Assembly: GCA_964553715.1 (NCBI GenBank)
Contig: CAZKKY010000002.1
Coordinates: forward strand, 26,311-90,310
DNA from: an uncultured Rickettsiaceae bacterium
Lineage (GTDB): Bacteria > Pseudomonadota > Alphaproteobacteria > Rickettsiales > Rickettsiaceae
Direction: 5' to 3'
Length of the DNA: 64,000 nt
The stretch's first letter is position 1. Each line of letters opens with the position of its first letter. Under the pieces are notes generated by a model. It had not been told where the DNA came from and searched no databases. It worked only from the letters and a program-made list of their open reading frames with translations. The position numbers were made by a program, and so were the translations under genes. Of the stretch, positions 48,400-60,900 are shown piece after piece.

Positions 48400-49053
48400 A
48401 TGCAGATTTTTATTGATAGTGTAGATTTAAAAGAAATAGAAGAATTAAATAGCTACGGTATAATAGACGGCGTTACGACTAATCCATCTTTATTTGCTAA
48501 AGCTGGTAGGGATTTTTATGAAACATCCAAAGAGATATGCCAAATTGTTGATGGCCCTGTAAGTATAGAGGCTATTTCTAGTAATTATGATGATATACTA
48601 AAAGAAGGAGAAAAAATATTTTCTATAGCAGAAAATGTAGTTCTAAAACTTCCTATTACTCCAAATGGTTTAAAAGCATGTAATTACTTTGCTAGAGAAG
48701 GTTATCCTGTTAATATGACGCTATGTTTTTCAGTAAATCAAGCTTTACTTGCCGCGAAAGCTGGCGCTACTTATGTTTCTCCATTTATAGGAAGGGTTGA
48801 GGATGCTGGTGATGATGGTATTAAGCTTATTTCTGACATCACAACCATGACATCACATTACATTGATCTAGAGATAATGGTTTTAGCTGCTTCTATAAGA
48901 ACTATAGAACATGTCTACAAGGTTGCTATGATTGGTGTAGATTCTGCTACTATTTCTCCAAATATCATTAGAGAATTAATAAAACATCCGTTAACAGATA
49001 GAGGGCTAGAAATTTTTGATCAAGACTGGAAAAAATCTGGCTTAAAAATATAA
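48400..49053 (+). CDS. tal: Transaldolase-family protein, short type (TalC / fructose-6-phosphate aldolase-like)
   Basis: 217 aa; MQIFIDSVDLKEIEE..., IDGVTTNPSL, Schiff-base lysine context VVLKLP, VSPFIGRV. Confidence 0.88.
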   Translation: MQIFIDSVDLKEIEELNSYGIIDGVTTNPSLFAKAGRDFYETSKEICQIVDGPVSIEAISSNYDDILKEGEKIFSIAENVVLKLPITPNGLKACNYFAREGYPVNMTLCFSVNQALLAAKAGATYVSPFIGRVEDAGDDGIKLISDITTMTSHYIDLEIMVLAASIRTIEHVYKVAMIGVDSATISPNIIRELIKHPLTDRGLEIFDQDWKKSGLKI

Positions 49054-49664
49054 TGATCTCATGGCAAAAAAAACATGGTTTAGTTGATTATAAATCCATG
49101 CTAGAGATTATGGATTCCAAAGTACAAGAAGTTATAGGTGGATCTCCAGATGCCGCATTTTTGTTAGAGCATGATCATATATATACTGCAGGTACTAGCT
49201 TTAAAAACACTGAGATACTAGACAACAATATTAAGATTATAGATACAGGAAGGGGCGGCAAAATTACCTATCATGGACCTGGGCAGAGAGTTATCTATCC
49301 TATTTTAAATCTTAATAAAAATAATAGAAACAAAGATTTAAAACTATATATTAGGAATTTAGAACATTGGATAATTGATACTTTATCATACTTTGCTATT
49401 AAATCATATATTGTACCAAATAGAGTTGGTATTTGGGTAGATGGCCCTAATGGAAAGTCTAAGATAGCAGCTATAGGAATTAGAGTAAGGAAATGGGTAA
49501 CATACCACGGAATAGCTATAAATATTTCTCCTGATTTATCAAAATACAAGTCAATAATTCCATGCGGTATAGATGATGCTTATGTTACTTCTATGAAAGA
49601 ACTTGGCATTAATATTTCTCTGGAAGAATTTGATGCGATTGCAAAAAAGATTTTTGATATATAA
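49053..49664 (+). CDS. lipB: Octanoyltransferase
   Basis: 203 aa; GRGGKITYHGPGQ, KIAAIGIRV. The start overlaps the tal stop. Confidence 0.92.
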   Translation: MISWQKKHGLVDYKSMLEIMDSKVQEVIGGSPDAAFLLEHDHIYTAGTSFKNTEILDNNIKIIDTGRGGKITYHGPGQRVIYPILNLNKNNRNKDLKLYIRNLEHWIIDTLSYFAIKSYIVPNRVGIWVDGPNGKSKIAAIGIRVRKWVTYHGIAINISPDLSKYKSIIPCGIDDAYVTSMKELGINISLEEFDAIAKKIFDI

Positions 49665-49692
49665 TTGACAGCAAAAATATATCCTATATTTT
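49665..49692 (+). promoter_or_regulatory. Candidate sigma-70 promoter for the riboswitch-MFS transcript
   Basis: TTGACA (49665-49670) lies immediately after the lipB stop. TATTTT follows at 49687-49692 (16-nt spacer), with an alternative TATATT at 49685. The predicted start falls at the 5' edge of the TPP aptamer. Confidence 0.4.
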
Positions 49693-49694
49693 TT

Positions 49695-49785
49695 CATACC
49701 AGGGGTGCCTAAATGGCTGAGATTATACCCTAGTCCTATGGACTTATACCTGCTCAAGATAATGCTTGCGAAGGAAGTGTAGAAT
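49695..49785 (+). promoter_or_regulatory. TPP (thiamine pyrophosphate) riboswitch aptamer
   Basis: All conserved THI-box blocks are present in order. These are GGGGTGCC (49702), GCTGAGA (49716), ACCC (49727), ACCTG (49748) and CTCAAG-ATAATG-CTTGCG-AAGGAAG (49753-49777). Compare E. coli thiM: GGGGUGCC...GCUGAGA..ACCC..ACCUGAUCUGGAUAAUGCCAGCGUAGGGAAG. An extra small hairpin agtcc-tat-ggact sits in the J2/4 position. The aptamer lies 48 nt upstream of the MFS gene. Confidence 0.9.
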
Positions 49786-49832
49786 GTTACCAAATTGTTA
49801 TCTCTGGTAAATTTAACTATATATTATGTATA

Positions 49833-51059
49833 ATGCAAAATTTATCAACCAGAGATTATTCTATTTTAATTGGGAGTGCTGTAGATCACTTCGACACAGC
49901 TCTTTATGCTTTTTTAGCGCCAATATTTGCTGAAGTATTTTTTCCTAATTCTGACCCTATAATTTCTTTAATACTAGCATATAGTGTTTTTGCAAGTACT
50001 ATAATAACTAGGCCATTAGGTTCTTATTTTTTTGGAATAATAGCAATGTCTTATGGACCTGCTGTGAGCTTATCATATTCTTTACTTGGTGTAGGAATAA
50101 GTACTTGTGCTATAGGTATAATGCCTACATATGAAGAAATCGGATTTTATGCTCCTTTGTGTCTAATAGTTATTCGGTTTCTTGGAGGTATTTTTTCAGC
50201 AGGAGAAATAACAATAGCAAAATTATATATATTTTCTGATAAAAATAATAAAGCAAAATTTAAAACTGCTTATTTATATCAAACATCCGTCATGCTAGGT
50301 ATAATATTGGCATCTTTTGCAAGTACAATTGTCCTTAAGTACCAGTATCATTCATACTGGAGAGTTTGTTTCATAATAGGAGGGATAGCGGCATTATTTG
50401 GTTATTCATTGAGAAAGTATAGAAAAGAAACATTATCTCTTAATATTAAACAAATATTGTATCTATATTCTTTTGGATCTCTAAAAACTTTATGGCTCAA
50501 TAAAAACTTATTACTTAAGATAATTATCACGTCCGGGTTTGGTTACTTAACATACTCTTTACCATTTATTATCATGAATAATTTAGTACCAGAATTTACT
50601 AACTTGACTCTAGAAGATATGATGCCTTCTAATACAATACTTCTGGTATTAGATATGATATTAGTTTTAATAATTGGTTCTATGCTTTTTAGATTTAAAA
50701 TACAAAATATATTATCATTTGCTACTTGCATATTAGCTATTAGTATAATTCCTATATGGATACATATTGAAGATAGTTCATTTACTTACATAATATTCAT
50801 AAAAATTTGGATTATTACAATCGGAGTAATTTTTAGTAATAGTATAAATCTATGGTATGATGGGTTAATATCAGAAGAAAATGGAAAATATTTTATTATA
50901 GGTATTGGTAGTGCAATTGGCTCGGCTATTATAGGAAAAATGGCGCCAGCTATTTGTCTTTTACTATATCATTACACAAAATCTAGCTTGTCTATTGCGC
51001 TGTTTGTATTATTTATTTCAGTTTTAACATTTTTTGCCGTTATTTCAGAAAATCAATAG
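49833..51059 (+). CDS. MFS permease, divergent metabolite:H+ symporter (ProP-like) family; riboswitch context suggests thiamine/TPP-related substrate
   Basis: 408 aa with about 12 TM helices. Has MHS-like motifs VDHFDTALYAFLAPIFAEVFFP, RPLGSYFFG and RFLGGIFSAGE. The substrate is inferred only from the upstream TPP riboswitch. Confidence 0.8.
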   Translation: MQNLSTRDYSILIGSAVDHFDTALYAFLAPIFAEVFFPNSDPIISLILAYSVFASTIITRPLGSYFFGIIAMSYGPAVSLSYSLLGVGISTCAIGIMPTYEEIGFYAPLCLIVIRFLGGIFSAGEITIAKLYIFSDKNNKAKFKTAYLYQTSVMLGIILASFASTIVLKYQYHSYWRVCFIIGGIAALFGYSLRKYRKETLSLNIKQILYLYSFGSLKTLWLNKNLLLKIIITSGFGYLTYSLPFIIMNNLVPEFTNLTLEDMMPSNTILLVLDMILVLIIGSMLFRFKIQNILSFATCILAISIIPIWIHIEDSSFTYIIFIKIWIITIGVIFSNSINLWYDGLISEENGKYFIIGIGSAIGSAIIGKMAPAICLLLYHYTKSSLSIALFVLFISVLTFFAVISENQ

Positions 51060-53534: not shown

Positions 53535-53987
53535 TTGCCGCGGAGCGGGGCTCCTCGCAATGACGGTTAAGGGTTACGTCATTGCGAAGGCCTTAGCCTG
53601 AAGCAATCCAGAAAAATAAGAAAGATTGCCGCGGAGCGGGGCTCCTCGCAATGACAATAAGTAGCCACGTCGCCATAGGCTCCTCGCAATGACTATTGCG
53701 CCCCCTGTCATCACAAACGCATCCCCGTCATCACGAGCGAAGCGAAGTGAACCAGTTCTTTTATCCTAGATTGCCACGGAGCGGGGCTCCTCGCAATGAC
53801 TATTGCGCCCCCTGTCATCACAAACGCATCCCCGTCATCACGAGCGAAGCGAAGTGAACCAGTTCTTTTATCCTAGATTGCCGCGGAGCATAGCTCCTCG
53901 CAATGACAATAAGTAGCCACGTCGCCATAGGCTCCTCGCAATGACTATTGCGCCCCCTGTCATCACGAGCGAAGCGAAGTGAACCAG
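53535..53987. repeat. GC-rich mosaic of short palindromic repeat modules (Rickettsia-palindromic-element-like)
   Basis: Module A, attgcc(g/a)cggagc(gggg/atag)ctcctcgcaatgac, occurs 4 times (53535, 53625, 53770, 53877). Module B, aataagtagccacgtcgccataggctcctcgcaatgac, occurs twice (53655, 53908). Module C, tattgcgccccctgtcatcac, occurs 3 times (53693, 53801, 53946). The tail gagcgaagcgaagtgaaccag occurs 3 times. There is a perfect 11-bp hairpin tcgcaatgacg/cgtcattgcga at 53555-53587. The block is conspicuously GC-rich against the AT-rich background. Confidence 0.9.
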
Positions 53988-54228: not shown

Positions 54229-57200
54229 ATGGTTAAGAAAAGAAATTTTTCTACAGCAAAAAAATTACTCACCACAGCATCTATGGTAACAGCAATCCTA
54301 AATTATACAGCAGCAGAGGCAGCACCGGTTGTCAAATTTATAAGTAATGGGAATGTTAGTGTCAGCACTAGCTCTAATACAAATTGGTTTTCTTGGGATG
54401 GTACTAACTGGAGTAATAGTAGTGTACTAGCTCCATCTTCTGGTAGTGTTTTGACAGCATGCAATGGTGCCCCAATTACTTTTGATACTTCTGGTCCTTT
54501 TTATCTTGCTATTGAAGATGGGAATAGTAATGTTACAATTTCGCACCCTACTACTCTTCACAGTGTATATAATAAGAGCGGTGTTGCTAATGTACAACTA
54601 AATGCTAATCTAACTCTTGGTGGTGGTGGCACGCAAGATACTTATGATGTATCAGATAATAAGTATACAATTCCTGCAAATGATTTTTCTGCTCTAACTA
54701 GTGGTAGCATTACTATTAGTGGTGATCATTCTTTGATAGGAAATATTGTAACTCAAACTGTTACTACAGGGACTCTATCTATAGCAGGGGCACATAAATT
54801 TACTCTTAATAATATTGATCTAACAGTAACAAACCAGATTACAGCTACAGATGGTGCTTCTATTCTTGGTACTAATATTAGTAACGATCAACTTAATGCA
54901 ACCGGTAGACTTAATTTCACTGGTGAGCATAGTTTTACATTAGATAGTACTAAATTTACGGGTAATGTTACTACTGGTAATAATGGTGAGGGTACTTTAA
55001 TATTAAATGGCGCTAATATTTCTGGTGATATTGGTGCTGTTGGCACTGCCCTAAAAGCGCTTCAGATAAATACTTCTGGTGCTGTTGATAATATATATGT
55101 TAATAATACCATACTTAATGGTCCACTAACGGTAAGAGGTAAGTTTGTTGGTGATAATATTACGGGTAAGGCAAGATTGACCTTAAAAGGCTCTGGTTTA
55201 AATATTAGTGGTGATATTGGTGCTTTAGGATCCAATTTACAATACATCACTGTCTCAAGTAATACAAATATCACTTGTACAAATGCATTTGTTAATGAGA
55301 TAGATTTTGATGATGATTATTCATTAACGTTTACTGGCAATTTAACCGGTAAAGTTACTACTGGTAGGGATGGTGAGGGTACTTTAATATTAAATGGCGC
55401 TACTGTTGATGGCACTGTTGGTGCTGTTGGCACTGCCCTAAAAGAACTTCAGATAGGTTCAAATAATTCTTCTGTAACAAAGGCAATTAATGCTGGCAGC
55501 ATCAATTTTGCTGGTGATTATAGTTTTACACTACAGAATAACTTTACAGGTAATGTTACTACTGGTACTGATGGTGAGGGTACTTTAATATTAAATGGCG
55601 CTACTGTTGATGGCACTGTTGGTGCTGTTGGAAGTGCTATAAATAATCTTTCTCTCCTAGGGGGAGGTGTTACAGGCGATATTTATGCTCAAACAGTAAC
55701 TATCGGGGGTGATGTTTCTGTTACTGTTAATAATATTAAGAATCTTGAGACACTGGATTTAAGTGGTAAACTTACTATAGATAATAATCTAGATCCGCTT
55801 GCCAATATTAACATCAATGCAGCTTCTACTTTAGTAGGTACTCCTAATCCTCCTTTCGTCTCAGAGAATGAGGTAAATACTACGGACCTTACCTTCGGTG
55901 GGGCTAATTCTTTCACCCTTGACAAAATTATTCTAGAAGTGACAAACCAGATTGAAGCTACAGATGGTGCTTCTATTATTGGTACTGATATTACAATTGA
56001 GGAAGTGGTAGCAACCGGTGGACTTAATTTCACTGGTGATCATAGTTTTACATTGGGAACCCTTAACTTTACAGGTAATGTTACTACTGGTAATAATGAT
56101 GAGGGTACTTTAATATTAAATGGTGCTATTGTTTATGGCACTGTTGGTGCTGCTGGCACTTCCCTAAAAGAACTTCAGATAGGTACAGGTGATTCTTCTG
56201 TAACAAAGGCAATTAATGCTAAAGGTATTAATTTTGGCGCTGCTGGTAAGTTAGAAATAAGTGATGATGCGACAATTGGAGCTGATGGAATTACAATTAG
56301 TGCAACTGGCGCTTCATTAGTCGGTACAGCAGGTGTTCCAAAGAATGTAACTCTGGATTCTGGAAATGGTGCTTTAAATTTCACTGGTAATCATAGCTTT
56401 ACATTACAGAATATAAAATTAACCGGTAATATTACTACTGATAGGAGTAGAGGGACTTTAATATTAAATGGCGCTACTGTTACAGGAGGTGTTGGTAAGG
56501 ATGGTAAAGATCTAGTAGAGATACAAATAGGTGCTCGTGATTCAGAAGTAATAGGTAATATTTACAGTCAAGAGGTCAAGTTTAATGATGCTGGAAAATT
56601 AACGGTTAGTGGCAGTGTTAGTACTGATTCTAGTTCTAATAATGGTGCTATTACAATAGATTTCGCGAATAAAGCTGGCGAATTAGTTGTAAATGGTAGC
56701 AATACGTTAAATATATCTGGCATCGATAATGTAATTAATAGTTATTCTTCGCTCAACACAATGCCTCATAGGATTGCTCATACTTCAACAATTACGTCCA
56801 CTGGAGGAACTAAGGGAACTTTAACCTTGAACGGTGAATCTTTAAAAAATGTAACAATTAATAGTTTAGACAAGATATCGATTGGTAAAGGCGCTTCTGC
56901 AATATGGTATGATGCTGCTACTGATGTAAAAGTAGATCAAATATCAATTGCTAATGCAAGTGGTGGTTTGTTATTTTCTAATGCTAAGGTTAGCCATACA
57001 ACTGCTGCTAATTCAAGCGTAAGCTTTACTCAGGACGGATATTTATACTTAAAAGATACAAACTTCACTGGTAATATCGGCTCTACTGCTGCAAACCAAG
57101 GAAATTTGATCTTATCAGGATCTACTGTTACAGGTACTGTTGGTGCTGGTAATGCTCTTAAGGCAATATATATTGCTGAAGGTAATAGCACAGTTACAGA

Positions 57201-59433
57201 CGTAATAAATGGAAGTGTAAATTTTATTCGGGATAATAACTCTCTTACAATTAATGCTGTAAATGGTATAAACGGTAATATTACAACAACTGGCAAAGCT
57301 TCTACCTTAACTTTAGCAGCTAATTTCTCAACACAGGGAACTATTGGCTCGTTAAAAGAAATTGTATTAAAGCCAAATGTCACATTCACAATTAATCATA
57401 ATAACGCAGCTGAGACTATTTCTGGTGATAGCACTTCATCTGTTGAGTTAAGCGTTGCTGCAAGTGCTGCTAACATAAAAAATGTTGGCAAGAAAGGTGC
57501 ATCTATAAATTCTATTACTGCAAATAGCGGTGGTACATTCGTTGGTAATTTATATGCAAATAACATTTTACTTACAAATAATACTGCTAAGACTATAGAG
57601 TTTGATGGTAGTGTTAATGGTAACGTTGTTCTAGATGGATCTAATCATAATGTAGTTATTGGCGATGGTGCTTCTATTAATGGTGATATTAATACAAAGA
57701 CTGCAGGGGGCGAGTTATCCTTTACTAAATCTGCTTCCTTTAATGGTAATTTAGGTTCTGGTGCTGGCTTTAATAAGGTAGTCATGGCAGCACAAGATGG
57801 TGTTGTTTCTGGTGCTGGTTCTATAAATGCTAAAAATATAGACCATAGTAATGGGAATTTTGCGTTATCCGGGAACTTAAAAGTGTACGGAAGCTATAAC
57901 TTAACAGCAGCTGGCCTTAACTTAAATAGCTATAGCATGACTACAGATAGCTTTGTTTTCGGTGCTGGGGATAGCAAGTTTAGAGTTGAAATGGGTAAAG
58001 GGGTTTTAGGTAATCTTGTAACAAACAATATTACTGTTGACCCTAATGCTAAGATTACTATCATTATAGAGGATAAAGACCCTTCGGTTCCTTTAAGTGG
58101 TACAAAGCTTAACGTAATTACTGCAGCTGGCACTACTCAAAACATGAGTGATATTATAAAATATTGTTCTGATGATGAAAAAATAGAGATTTTGGGTACT
58201 AACAGATTCGAAAATTATACTTTTAAAGCAATACAAAATGGCAATAATGGTTTTATCCTGCAATTAACATCAATGAGGCAAGCAGGAGAAGACCAAGTAA
58301 CTATTGGTCTTCTGCCAGAATATTTACAAGGACCAACGAAAGAACTACTTGACGCTTGGGATAGTAACAAAATAGTTCTAGGTAGTGATCTTGACCAATT
58401 ATTGACATTATCTGGTAATCTTGACCCTAATACTTCAGCTGAATTATTAGAAAAAGTTAAGAGAGAAGGTGTGATTCATAATGTAGCTCTGCCAACTAAT
58501 ATATCTTCTGTTCCTACTAATGTTCTTGGTTCTCATATTATTTCTTTAGTTACACCTATAGCATCTGCTGCTGGTGATGAAAATTCTAAAGAAGTTGGAC
58601 TCTGGGCTAGCGCTTTTGGTGGTAATGCATTGCAGAAATCTTATCAAAAGCAAATAGGATTTAGATCTTCTACTGCTGGAGGTGCTATAGGCTTTGATAC
58701 TGAGATTAATGATCAGACAATTGTTGGTCTTGCAGGAACTTATAGTGCATCTAATGTAAAGCCGAAAGGAAAGTTATCTGGAGATACGGTAAAAGCAAAA
58801 AGCTATGCTATCTCTTTCTATGGTATTTCTAACCTAGGAAATAACTGGTTCGCGCAAGGGTCAGTAGCTTTAGGCAATACTAGTATTAGTAATAATAATA
58901 GGAGGGTTGTTGGCGCTTCTTCTTATGTTATTGCAAAAAGCAAATTTAATATCGTAAATTATTCTCTTGATATGCTTGCAGGTTATAATTATAGAGTTGG
59001 TTCTTCTAGTATTATTACTCCGCTTGCTGGTATTAGCTATGTTAGATATAACAATGATGATGCTCAGGAAACCGGAGCTGGTATCCAAAATAGAAAAATC
59101 AAGATGAAAGCTGTAGATAAGATAAATGGTATTATGGGAGCTAGAATTTCCCATAATATCGCACTTGAAGAAGATAGAGTTCTTGAACTAGAGCTTCATG
59201 GATTTGGGTCTTATGACTTCAAAAACCAAACCCCTTCTACAGATATTAGAATTAGCGGATATGATAAATCTCTATCTAGCGGGTCTCAGAAGCCGTCTCG
59301 TACCAGCTTTAATCTAGGTACTAGCTTTACAAATAAAAAAGGCATGATTGAATATGGTGCCGGCTATGATATGAATCTTTCAAAGAAATATCAAGCTCAT
59401 CAAGGTTCTGTAAAACTGAGGGTGAATTTTTAA
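54229..59433 (+). CDS. Autotransporter outer-membrane protein (Sca-like), 1734 aa, with repetitive passenger domain
   Basis: Has an N-terminal signal-like segment (MVKKRNFSTAKKLLTTASMVTAILNYTAAEA) and a G/T/N/S-rich passenger with repeated FTGNVTTG..GEGTLILNGA.V.G.VGA.G..LK.LQIG modules. The C-terminal ~280 aa show alternating beta-strand pattern (EVGLWASAFGGNA...) and end in RVNF. Confidence 0.88.
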   Translation: MVKKRNFSTAKKLLTTASMVTAILNYTAAEAAPVVKFISNGNVSVSTSSNTNWFSWDGTNWSNSSVLAPSSGSVLTACNGAPITFDTSGPFYLAIEDGNSNVTISHPTTLHSVYNKSGVANVQLNANLTLGGGGTQDTYDVSDNKYTIPANDFSALTSGSITISGDHSLIGNIVTQTVTTGTLSIAGAHKFTLNNIDLTVTNQITATDGASILGTNISNDQLNATGRLNFTGEHSFTLDSTKFTGNVTTGNNGEGTLILNGANISGDIGAVGTALKALQINTSGAVDNIYVNNTILNGPLTVRGKFVGDNITGKARLTLKGSGLNISGDIGALGSNLQYITVSSNTNITCTNAFVNEIDFDDDYSLTFTGNLTGKVTTGRDGEGTLILNGATVDGTVGAVGTALKELQIGSNNSSVTKAINAGSINFAGDYSFTLQNNFTGNVTTGTDGEGTLILNGATVDGTVGAVGSAINNLSLLGGGVTGDIYAQTVTIGGDVSVTVNNIKNLETLDLSGKLTIDNNLDPLANININAASTLVGTPNPPFVSENEVNTTDLTFGGANSFTLDKIILEVTNQIEATDGASIIGTDITIEEVVATGGLNFTGDHSFTLGTLNFTGNVTTGNNDEGTLILNGAIVYGTVGAAGTSLKELQIGTGDSSVTKAINAKGINFGAAGKLEISDDATIGADGITISATGASLVGTAGVPKNVTLDSGNGALNFTGNHSFTLQNIKLTGNITTDRSRGTLILNGATVTGGVGKDGKDLVEIQIGARDSEVIGNIYSQEVKFNDAGKLTVSGSVSTDSSSNNGAITIDFANKAGELVVNGSNTLNISGIDNVINSYSSLNTMPHRIAHTSTITSTGGTKGTLTLNGESLKNVTINSLDKISIGKGASAIWYDAATDVKVDQISIANASGGLLFSNAKVSHTTAANSSVSFTQDGYLYLKDTNFTGNIGSTAANQGNLILSGSTVTGTVGAGNALKAIYIAEGNSTVTDVINGSVNFIRDNNSLTINAVNGINGNITTTGKASTLTLAANFSTQGTIGSLKEIVLKPNVTFTINHNNAAETISGDSTSSVELSVAASAANIKNVGKKGASINSITANSGGTFVGNLYANNILLTNNTAKTIEFDGSVNGNVVLDGSNHNVVIGDGASINGDINTKTAGGELSFTKSASFNGNLGSGAGFNKVVMAAQDGVVSGAGSINAKNIDHSNGNFALSGNLKVYGSYNLTAAGLNLNSYSMTTDSFVFGAGDSKFRVEMGKGVLGNLVTNNITVDPNAKITIIIEDKDPSVPLSGTKLNVITAAGTTQNMSDIIKYCSDDEKIEILGTNRFENYTFKAIQNGNNGFILQLTSMRQAGEDQVTIGLLPEYLQGPTKELLDAWDSNKIVLGSDLDQLLTLSGNLDPNTSAELLEKVKREGVIHNVALPTNISSVPTNVLGSHIISLVTPIASAAGDENSKEVGLWASAFGGNALQKSYQKQIGFRSSTAGGAIGFDTEINDQTIVGLAGTYSASNVKPKGKLSGDTVKAKSYAISFYGISNLGNNWFAQGSVALGNTSISNNNRRVVGASSYVIAKSKFNIVNYSLDMLAGYNYRVGSSSIITPLAGISYVRYNNDDAQETGAGIQNRKIKMKAVDKINGIMGARISHNIALEEDRVLELELHGFGSYDFKNQTPSTDIRISGYDKSLSSGSQKPSRTSFNLGTSFTNKKGMIEYGAGYDMNLSKKYQAHQGSVKLRVNF

Positions 59434-59646: not shown

Positions 59647-60900
59647 TTATAAATTAGAGAGTTTAAACCTTCGACCTATATAAATCAGCAAACAAAGTGC
59701 TGGTAATTCTAGAAACACTGTAAGAATGAAGAAACTATCCCACCCTATAGATTTTATAATCAAGCCCGAATAAGAAGAAAAAATATTGTTTGCTAGGTTA
59801 GATAGGCTACTTAATAATGCATATTGACTAGCGCTATAAGTTTTATTGCATAATGCACTTAAATATCCTACTAATGCTGTTGTTCCCATTCCACCTGTAA
59901 AATTATCAATCGATACTGCTATAACTAAGGGAATCTCTGATGGCGTCTGGTGATGAAGCCACAAATATGCTAAATTAGATATAGATTGTAAAATACCACA
60001 AACTATCATACCCTTTATATTGCCTATTTTATATATCAGCATTCCGCCTAATATAGATCCACAACTAGTTGCTATTAAACCATAAGATTTTACATAAAGT
60101 CCGATTTGTGAGTTATTATATCCTAGCTCTTTATAAAAAGGCATACTCACAAAACCTAACATAGCCTCACCCATTTTATAACATACGATAGAAGCAAGTA
60201 TTAATAATGCTCCATCACGAGTTAATATGTCTTTAAATGGTGATATCACTATGTTTTTAAATCTATCTATAATGTTAGAGTCATCCGAAAGAATAATACT
60301 ACTCTCTTCTTTAATGCTGAAAGCAAATATCATGCCGGCAAGAAAGATGCATGACATAATTATAAAAGCGATTGGCCAATATTCTGTATTAATGCCTACA
60401 AAATACATCGTAACACCACCTGTTATATAGGCCCCAAGACGCCATCCAAACACTGCTGTTGCAGACCCTATAGCTTGCTGATTATCTGAAAGTAAGTTGA
60501 TTCTAAGCCCATCATAGCTTAAATCATATGTTGCTCCGCAAATACCAAACAATATTGCTAAATATCTAAAATTTGATATTGATTCTAAAGGACCAGTAAC
60601 ACTCATCCAAAATAATATAACCGACATCAATCCAGTAGTTAGAATGATCCAAGATTTTTTAGCGCCTAATTTATGTAAAAATGGAATCTTAACAGAATCT
60701 ATCAGAGGAGACCAAAATACTTTAAGAGTATATGGACTTCTTGCTATTGCAAAGCTAGTAAGAACTGTGATATCTATCTTATAATCACTCATCCACCCTA
60801 TAATACTTGTATATAGAATAGAAAATGGCATCCCACTAATTATTCCAAGTACAAAGACTTGAAATAACCGAAATTCTTTTAACCAAATAGGAAGCTTCAC
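59647..60900 (-). CDS. ampG: AmpG-family MFS permease
   Basis: 417 aa with 12+ TM helices. The N-terminal LGIISGMPFSILYTSIIGWM and overall AmpG-like layout support the call. The GTG start overlaps the upstream stop by 1 nt. Confidence 0.8.
   Translation of the reverse strand: MKLPIWLKEFRLFQVFVLGIISGMPFSILYTSIIGWMSDYKIDITVLTSFAIARSPYTLKVFWSPLIDSVKIPFLHKLGAKKSWIILTTGLMSVILFWMSVTGPLESISNFRYLAILFGICGATYDLSYDGLRINLLSDNQQAIGSATAVFGWRLGAYITGGVTMYFVGINTEYWPIAFIIMSCIFLAGMIFAFSIKEESSIILSDDSNIIDRFKNIVISPFKDILTRDGALLILASIVCYKMGEAMLGFVSMPFYKELGYNNSQIGLYVKSYGLIATSCGSILGGMLIYKIGNIKGMIVCGILQSISNLAYLWLHHQTPSEIPLVIAVSIDNFTGGMGTTALVGYLSALCNKTYSASQYALLSSLSNLANNIFSSYSGLIIKSIGWDSFFILTVFLELPALCLLIYIGRRFKLSNL

Follow-up and report, generated by a model that had tools for sequence, protein, structure and literature searches.

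A thiamine pyrophosphate riboswitch aptamer with an extra junction hairpin upstream of an MHS-like permease gene, a candidate thiamine-vitamer importer of a Rickettsiaceae bacterium

Rickettsiae make neither thiamine nor its phosphates and need, as a minimum, to import thiamine diphosphate (ThDP), for which the carrier is unassigned (PMC5615194). Can such a carrier be recognized from the RNA element that precedes its gene? The question is raised by a locus of an uncultured Rickettsiaceae bacterium (assembly GCA_964553715.1, contig CAZKKY010000002.1), where an initial annotation of a 64-kb stretch of DNA (hereafter the window, meaning the whole stretch of 64,000 nucleotides) had noticed a thiamine pyrophosphate (TPP) riboswitch in front of a permease gene of the major facilitator superfamily (MFS). 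The results described below show that positions 49693–49784 of the plus strand are a TPP aptamer with an extra hairpin between its helices P2 and P4. They make it probable that this element serves as a translational OFF switch for the permease gene at 49833–51059 (+) and that a thiamine vitamer is what the permease imports.

The TPP aptamer and its extra hairpin

The blocks that define the THI-box were all read directly in the sequence, on the plus strand and in canonical order, as the initial annotation had claimed: GGGGTGCC (49702–49709), GCTGAGA (49716–49722), ACCC (49727–49730; the 3' strand of P2), ACCTG (49748–49752; the 5' strand of P4) and CTCAAGATAATGCTTGCGAAGGAAG (49753–49777). The element would fold into the helices P1 (49693–99/49777–84; 7 base pairs with one bulge), P2 (49701–06/49725–31), P3 (49707–09/49715–17), P4 (49749–52/49771–74) and P5 (49755–58/49765–68), with J3/2, CUGAGA, at 49717–22. 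In its core (GGGGUGC, CUGAGA, ACCC, ACCUG...GCG.AGG.A), its helices P1 to P5 and its position in a 5' leader, it resembles the TPP riboswitch family of Rfam, RF00059. In an Rfam scan limited to the 301 nucleotides (nt) of 49600–49900, RF00059 was the sole significant family, matching 49691–49794 (+) with 40.6 bits (E 7.8e-7). The gathering score of RF00059, which is an operational annotation cutoff and no structural definition, is 54.3 bits, and because the element scores below it, a scan of the whole window at gathering thresholds returned only the transfer-messenger RNA (tmRNA) and tRNAs, and no riboswitch. The initial annotation had been prepared to give up its riboswitch for a score below this threshold, and on that count the score went against it; the decision therefore fell to a comparison with related loci, in the light of which the whole-window scan, taken by itself, would have dismissed the riboswitch wrongly.

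With each GTDB species represented by one genome, 80 permease loci were obtained. By a simple motif search, about 35 of the 80 have a THI-box directly 5' of the ortholog, and a clade-aware model placed the element 5' of the permease, always on the gene strand, in 42, which span Megaira-like Rickettsiaceae, Caedibacter, several clades of alphaproteobacterial metagenome-assembled genomes (MAGs) and MAGs of Chlamydiota; the matches in L066, L068, L071, L072, L075–L078 and L047 lie outside the training set of the model. RF00059 itself reaches its gathering score, with 59–75 bits, in 13 of the 16 orthologous loci tested, and the three that fail are two Megaira loci with an inserted hairpin of the type found in the window, and L019.

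Covariation was counted in a MAFFT alignment of 26 orthologous elements, into which the 18 pairs of the canonical P2, P3, P4 and P5 were written, P1 being left out because the MAFFT register of its 3' strand differs between clades. Standard pairs fill 93.2% of the cells of P2–P5, against 30–62% when the partner strand is slid and 81% in shuffles. Double-sided changes occur in 8 pairs (52 cells), compared with 5.4 pairs (14.3 cells) in shuffles, and the covariation score of 0.344, against 0.109, was reached by none of 500 shuffles. P2, for example, alternates between GGGG/ACCC and GAGG/ACUC, and P5 occurs as CAGG/CCUG, CUGG/CCAG, CCGG/CCGG and CAUG/CAUG. The check that the initial annotation had proposed, namely that orthologs should keep the riboswitch with compensatory changes, thus came out in its favour. 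A covariance model made from the 26-element alignment matches the window at 49688–49791 with 70.5 bits (E 5e-19), its single match in 64 kb. The window retains 28 of the 28 columns that are invariant among the 26 aligned elements, and every one of its helices pairs, P5 through the compensatory change CAAG/CUUG. Judged by its sequence, the window element is a TPP riboswitch aptamer, which presumably binds TPP and affects expression of the downstream gene.

The RNA itself is of a known class, and what the window/Megaira clade adds to RF00059, along with its sub-threshold Rfam score, is a hairpin in the P2/P4 junction. In the window this insert, AGUCC-UAU-GGACU at 49732–49744 (+), lies within the 17 nt that separate ACCC from ACCUG, and it is folded in every minimum-free-energy (MFE) structure. 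The RF00059 model takes it for the optional P3a, at the cost of pairing the ACCC strand of P2, which is why the element stays below the threshold; orthologous elements free of the insert reach 59–75 bits. The low score is thus explained by the extra hairpin and not by decay. Megaira loci L001–L005 have a hairpin at the same junction position with the unrelated sequence UCAAAUU/AAUUUGA, and so has the metagenomic relative L082 with AUCAGAUUUU/AAAAUCUGAU; it is absent from L007, from L083, which carries a 131-nt insertion in P3 instead, and from all remoter relatives. The occurrence of three sequence-unrelated stems at one position argues for a maintained, lineage-specific structural feature, which would turn the three-way junction of the aptamer into a four-way junction. 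To our knowledge, no described TPP aptamer has a helix at this position.

The score of 40.6 against 54.3 bits, together with the repeated loss of the aptamer in the permease family (a platform relic at L084, nothing in the clade of Rickettsia, Tisiphia and Midichloria; see below), could also be read to mean that the window element is in decay and has lost its TPP binding, in front of a gene expressed constitutively as in Rickettsia. We give this reading the slimmest of chances: the invariant columns and the helices are intact, the missing bits can be traced to a single inserted hairpin, whose structure is conserved in Megaira and L082 in spite of their different sequences, and the complements of the expression platform are intact as well.

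The flanks of 32 riboswitch-positive loci hold genes that vary by lineage, none of them thiamine-related among those inspected; the ten same-strand downstream neighbours scanned encode polyprenyl synthase, GreA, PfkB kinase, D-Ala-D-Ala carboxypeptidase, ABC ATPase and ankyrin proteins. It is therefore the permease itself that the riboswitch tracks. The two appear to form a self-contained unit, and the assignment of the riboswitch to the downstream MFS gene, made by the initial annotation, is borne out by their pairing in the 42 loci amid variable and unrelated flanks.

The permease and its relatives

The gene behind the aptamer is monocistronic and encodes a protein of 408 amino acids (aa) with 12 transmembrane segments (TM), for which the open reading frame (ORF), a Pfam match to Sugar_tr and the predicted structure agree with the MFS carrier that had been annotated. 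AlphaFold2, run with the family alignment, gave 12 long helices (pLDDT 89.9, pTM 0.88) in the MFS fold of two six-helix bundles. Foldseek returned 410 MFS matches in the PDB with E ≤ 0.001, at a TM-score of about 0.75 and 10–16% identity, all of them generic MFS neighbours, and a search of the PDB sequences with the family profile detected no relative. The best NCBIfam match, TIGR00883 of the metabolite:H+ symporter (MHS) subfamily (TC 2.A.1.6), is full-length (E 1.8e-40), but its 139.3 bits stay below the subfamily cutoff of 443.45 bits. The ProP equivalog NF007927 gives 77.5 bits against a cutoff of 544, and profile positions 32–433 of 500 are aligned, so that the C-terminal region of ProP falls outside the alignment. 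The description of the permease as ProP-like thus holds at the level of the MHS subfamily and fails for true ProP; the label that suits its sequence best is that of a divergent, MHS-like carrier of the MFS. With the MHS family (ProP, ShiA, KgtP, TcuC) it shares the full-length alignment, the 12-TM fold and the acidic motif of TM1 (DHFD here). We know of no member of that family that transports thiamine.

The nearest relatives are in Megaira-like Rickettsiaceae (67–70% identity), and the proteins of Rickettsia and Midichloria annotated as 'proline/betaine transporter ProP4' are orthologs with 44–47% identity. ProP4 is kept in every Rickettsia group, the typhus group included (R. prowazekii, R. 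typhi). Members of the family were found in Trichorickettsia, Parachlamydiaceae and Babeliales as well, and its distribution is concentrated in obligate intracellular bacteria. At five loci (L064, from R. australis str. Phillips, L006, L065, L061 and L011), translation from the start of the tblastn match stops at 41–220 aa, for which pseudogenes, frameshifts, contig ends or an offset match start are possible causes; R. australis str. Cutlack has an intact ortholog.

A rough neighbour-joining tree of the permease shows the riboswitch on almost every deep branch, namely in the window, in two clades of Megaira type, in Caedibacter, in several clades of alphaproteobacterial MAGs and in a MAG of Chlamydiota. 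A single derived clade, made up of Rickettsia, Tisiphia and Midichloria, branches as the sister of the window/Megaira clade, and none of its members has the riboswitch. Rickettsia ProP4 thus belongs to an orthologous clade and differs in having no upstream riboswitch (best score below 13 bits with the filters off); the filter-free search found no degraded remnant 5' of ten orthologs from Rickettsia, Tisiphia and Midichloria, the best match in those ten loci, with 12.8 bits, being at another place and on the opposite strand. Losses occur within the Megaira-like clade too. At 622–700 of L084, a metagenomic Megaira-like relative, the aptamer is gone and a 78-nt spacer follows queH; a relic of the platform is left (CCCTAGTGAATTTAAC, compared with CCCTGGTAAATTTAAC), and its conserved partner in the coding sequence, CGGGAT, is still there, which looks like a recent loss of the riboswitch.

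A TPP riboswitch 5' of a thiamine importer is a textbook arrangement, and in having the riboswitch 5' of a vitamin importer the proposed unit would resemble those of ThiBPQ, ThiT, YkoEDC, PnuT, ThiV and NiaP-type carriers. The permease itself differs from the known thiamine carriers: neither Pfam nor NCBIfam relates it to the ABC, ECF, Pnu or SSS families, its nearest family is MHS, and its distribution is centred on obligate intracellular bacteria. Homology to ThiBPQ, ThiT/ECF, PnuT, ThiV or CytX was not found, Pfam and NCBIfam giving MFS/MHS-type families only, and no homolog is named NiaP, the best NCBIfam matches being MHS rather than NiaP. The recognised classes of thiamine carriers are ABC, ECF, NiaP-type MFS and PnuT (PMC9026889; also PMC6593275), among which NiaP exemplifies an MFS scaffold able to carry thiamine (PMC9026889). 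The novelty that the initial annotation had seen in the carrier must therefore be narrowed, since an MFS protein alone is not unprecedented once NiaP is a recognised class; what stands is that the permease lies outside the recognised ABC, ECF, Pnu and SSS families. The searchable literature, in which subscription journals are incompletely covered, holds no description of a TPP riboswitch linked to Rickettsiales or to an MHS/ProP-type carrier, and large tables of riboswitch contexts may already list 'MFS' beside such aptamers because several of the orthologous elements pass the Rfam threshold. We rate as new the extra junction helix and the transporter family, which appears to lie outside the recognised thiamine carriers and is linked directly to Rickettsia ProP4.

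Expression platform and mode of control

Downstream of the aptamer, the switching segment UAUCUCUGGUAAAUUU (49799–49814, +), delimited by duplex energies, stepwise folds and covariation, is predicted to pair with either of two partners. Its part UAUCUCUGGUA (49799–49809) complements the 5' strand of the aptamer, UACCAGGGGUG at 49697–49707, comprising the 5' sides of P1 and P2 (the anti-sequestor; −14.9 kcal/mol), and 49800–49814 complements 49838–49856 (the sequestor; −14.2 kcal/mol as a duplex, −13.3 to −16.9 kcal/mol as a hairpin), the two helices being nearly isoenergetic. The 3' arm of the sequestor is in codons 2–8 of the permease gene, within 49833–49856 (+), where the start codon AUG is at 49833–35, AAAUUU at 49838–43 and ACCAGAGAU at 49848–56. 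In stepwise folding, a transcript ending at 49795 has the native aptamer, those ending at 49812–49835 have the anti-sequestor and a broken aptamer, and from 49860 on the aptamer is present together with the sequestor.

Both helices are conserved in relatives. All of the long-leader relatives have a 9–11-nt complement of the aptamer 5' strand, located 24–52 nt 5' of the start codon (per-locus p 0.003–0.04 against shuffled leaders), with the covarying pairs TACCAGAGG/TTTCTGGTA, ATCACCAGGG/CCCTGGTGGT and TGCCAGGGGTG/TATCCCTGGTA. The sequestor helix covaries in the window clade at a synonymous position of an Arg codon: AUCUC in the platform goes with GAGAU in the window (AGA) and in L001, L004 and L005 (CGA), AUCCC with GGGAU in L002, L003 and L081 (CGG), and CUCCC/CCCCC with GGGAU in L007 and L083 (AGG); a further swap is CUGG/CCAG for UUGG/CCAA. 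In the GC-richer L028 and L042, folding with an enforced aptamer pairs the switching segment with a Shine-Dalgarno sequence, GGAGG, and in the short-leader clades the aptamer directly adjoins the start codon. GC-rich elements in the leaders of L028, L083 and L002, between the aptamer and the switching segment, add 100–150 nt, the distal switching segment being kept; they are similar to a GC-rich repeat of the window starting with CATTGCGAGGAGC, of which at least five copies lie in the intergenic region between the SDF transporter and autotransporter genes (53536–53905), in an AT-rich genome (6 matches in the window, 0.9 expected).

These predicted folds are best read as a translational OFF switch built of sequestor and anti-sequestor, whose direction and mode we infer. 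At low TPP, 49799–49809 would pair with the aptamer 5' strand at 49697–49707 and break P1 and P2, leaving the start-codon region open, and the permease would be made. With TPP bound, the aptamer would lock its own 5' strand and free the platform segment, which would then pair with codons 2–8 (49838–49856) in a hairpin that encloses the AUG, and translation would stop. The proposed mechanism is similar to that of E. coli thiM, and to the design described for Gram-negative THI elements in which a sequestor and an anti-sequestor act on the Shine-Dalgarno sequence, in that an alternative pairing in a predicted OFF switch hides the translation start. It differs from them in that the anti-sequestor uses the 5' strand of P1 and P2 instead of the 3' strand of P1, and in that the AT-rich window clade would sequester the AUG and the first codons, not the Shine-Dalgarno sequence.

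A ttacca/tggtaa hairpin, to which the initial annotation had drawn attention, does exist, one base away from where it had been placed (49787–49792/49805–49810), but it is weak (−3.9 kcal/mol) and in no MFE fold, and, having no U-tract either, it was rejected as a terminator or main switch. A genuine riboswitch could nevertheless act on transcription, by intrinsic or Rho-dependent termination in the leader instead of on translation initiation; a U-rich tract follows just 3' of the switching segment in L017 (GGUAUUUCUUUUAAAA) and L027 (GGUGUUUUUAUUUAUUU), and untranslated transcripts are commonly exposed to Rho. We regard such a mode as unlikely, given that no intrinsic terminator is predicted within 49550–49950, that the window has only AAAUUUAAC after the segment, that the hairpin just described is so weak, and that the conserved partner of the switching segment is the coding region or the Shine-Dalgarno sequence. 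Translational control thus remains the preferred reading.

The candidate promoter region spans 49660–49692 (+). The TTGACA-N16-TATTTT promoter of the initial annotation is present there (TTGACA 49665–70, TATTTT 49687–92; 10 of 12 matches) but doubtful: promoter-like sites are as common in shuffles (3 found, 2.4 expected), and a transcript beginning near 49699, as it predicts, would lack most of the P1 5' strand (49693–49699). Alternatively, transcription could start from a perfect −10 hexamer, TATAAT at 49660–49665, which overlaps the stop codon of lipB, or reach the gene by reading through from lipB.

The likely substrate and its meaning for intracellular bacteria

TPP riboswitches almost always control genes of thiamine synthesis or transport, and an OFF switch fits an importer. 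The presence of lipB upstream and of gltA and icd elsewhere in the window, as first annotated, was confirmed, and the window encodes transaldolase in addition to LipB, citrate synthase and isocitrate dehydrogenase. These genes imply lipoylated 2-oxoacid dehydrogenases and a non-oxidative pentose-phosphate pathway, and with them a need for the TPP-dependent enzymes that both require. The protein of the transaldolase/fructose-6-phosphate aldolase family (48400–49050, +; E 2.6e-56) is encoded just 5' of lipB and implies that transketolase, which is TPP-dependent, is encoded elsewhere in the genome; a non-oxidative pentose-phosphate pathway has been reported for Megaira and Tisiphia (PMC10132079). 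The lack of thiamine biosynthesis genes that had been suspected was found again, as none of the 48 ORFs scanned belongs to thiamine synthesis or salvage, a result that covers the window and not the genome. Rickettsia is without all thiamine enzymes (PMC5615194), and Megaira genomes are without functional vitamin pathways (PMC10132079). An OFF switch in hosts unable to use precursors therefore points to import of thiamine or a thiamine phosphate, and we infer that the substrate is most likely thiamine or ThDP from the host cytosol, in agreement with the candidate thiamine-vitamer importer of the initial annotation, which the conserved pairing of aptamer and permease supports. The host-cytosol lifestyle and the lack of kinases reported for Rickettsia favour ThDP.

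TPP riboswitches also control transporters of precursors, and among the riboswitch-positive hosts are MAGs of uncharacterised thiamine metabolism, so the permease could be imagined to take up a thiamine precursor or degradation product (hydroxymethylpyrimidine, thiazole or a related pyrimidine) for salvage in the manner of CytX, ThiU or ThiV (for a list of vitamer-specific transporters, see PMC6593275). This is quite unlikely in our view, as no thiD, thiE or thiM-type gene adjoins the permease in the loci inspected or occurs among the window ORFs scanned; Megaira is reported without functional vitamin pathways, and a precursor would be useless to Rickettsia, which has no thiamine enzymes. It is highly improbable, too, that the permease carries a non-thiamine metabolite of the MHS type, such as a 2-oxoacid (pyruvate, 2-oxoglutarate) or an osmolyte, with TPP merely tuning its level. 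The nearest profile families are indeed MHS carriers of shikimate, tricarballylate and proline/betaine, and the Rickettsia and Midichloria orthologs bear the proline/betaine annotation, but the scores are far under every equivalog cutoff, so that the ProP annotation amounts to a superfamily transfer only, and the match to the ProP profile ends at position 433 of 500 with the C-terminal region uncovered. Known TPP riboswitches, moreover, almost always sit on thiamine genes, and an OFF switch that cut the supply of a TPP-enzyme substrate when the cofactor is plentiful would make little regulatory sense.

Several points weigh against a riboswitch-controlled importer of a thiamine vitamer. The aptamer scores below the curated Rfam threshold. 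Its P1 has few base pairs and a bulge, and would be truncated in a transcript from the only promoter of consensus type. The covariation of the sequestor stands on about 5–6 independent lineages. For the full leader with 45 nt of coding sequence, the ligand-free MFE structure already has aptamer and sequestor, and the ON state must therefore be kinetic or ribosome-assisted; a kinetic one is possible because the anti-sequestor partner is transcribed first. Neither genomic neighbours nor solved structures point to the substrate, and MHS relatives usually carry organic acids or osmolytes. The absence of thiamine kinase and biosynthesis is that of the window ORFs, and the riboswitch-less orthologs of Rickettsia, Tisiphia and Midichloria might have diverged in substrate.

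Other features of the window may be recorded here. Quinolinate synthase NadA (18353–19447, −; E 1.2e-114) and NAD kinase (24868–25638, −) are encoded; Rickettsia proper is described as importing NAD instead of making it, so that the de novo route to NAD may be partly retained in this organism. The tmRNA (36757–37075, +; 214.8 bits), of the alphaproteobacterial two-piece (permuted) type, is preceded by two genes for ankyrin-repeat proteins (34824–35699 and 35806–36777), and virB8/virB9-type genes lie at 39016–40468 (−). The 1734-aa protein encoded at 54229–59433 (+) has a C-terminal autotransporter beta-domain (residues 1458–1701) and an N-terminal passenger of near-identical repeats, e.g. GTLILNGATVDGTVGAVG, features that suggest a Sca-like surface protein. 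Another MFS transporter, unrelated to the permease (59647–60897, −), matches MFS_1 and the acetyl-CoA transporter/AmpG-like Acatn family, and neither the Rfam gathering scan nor our own model gave a riboswitch near its gene.

Few signals that are purely genomic tie an orphan transporter to a specific metabolite, and a riboswitch is among them; here it is conserved over dozens of lineages and points to one permease family, the Rickettsia member of which currently bears a proline/betaine annotation. In AT-rich endosymbiont genomes, this structurally extended subclass of TPP aptamers is missed by the Rfam threshold. The seven ProP groups of Rickettsia are divergent and their substrate ranges unknown (Driscoll et al. 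2017, PMC5615194), ProP4 having been discussed in the literature as a possible amino-acid carrier. The present permease family is currently the best candidate for a carrier that would bring this host cofactor into Rickettsiales and other intracellular bacteria. We tentatively raise the further possibility, with well under even confidence, that the whole MHS-like clade is a ThDP importer of obligate intracellular bacteria, ancestrally riboswitch-controlled, and that ProP4 is the ThDP route of pathogenic Rickettsia; such an importer would be common to Rickettsiales, Holosporales-type symbionts, Chlamydiota and Babeliales, like the nucleotide translocases, and, if true, this would name the transporter for one host-derived cofactor that blocks axenic culture. 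How, and in which form, these parasites get vitamin B1 thus becomes directly testable on a named gene, with a bearing on the design of media for axenic culture and on a possible drug target.

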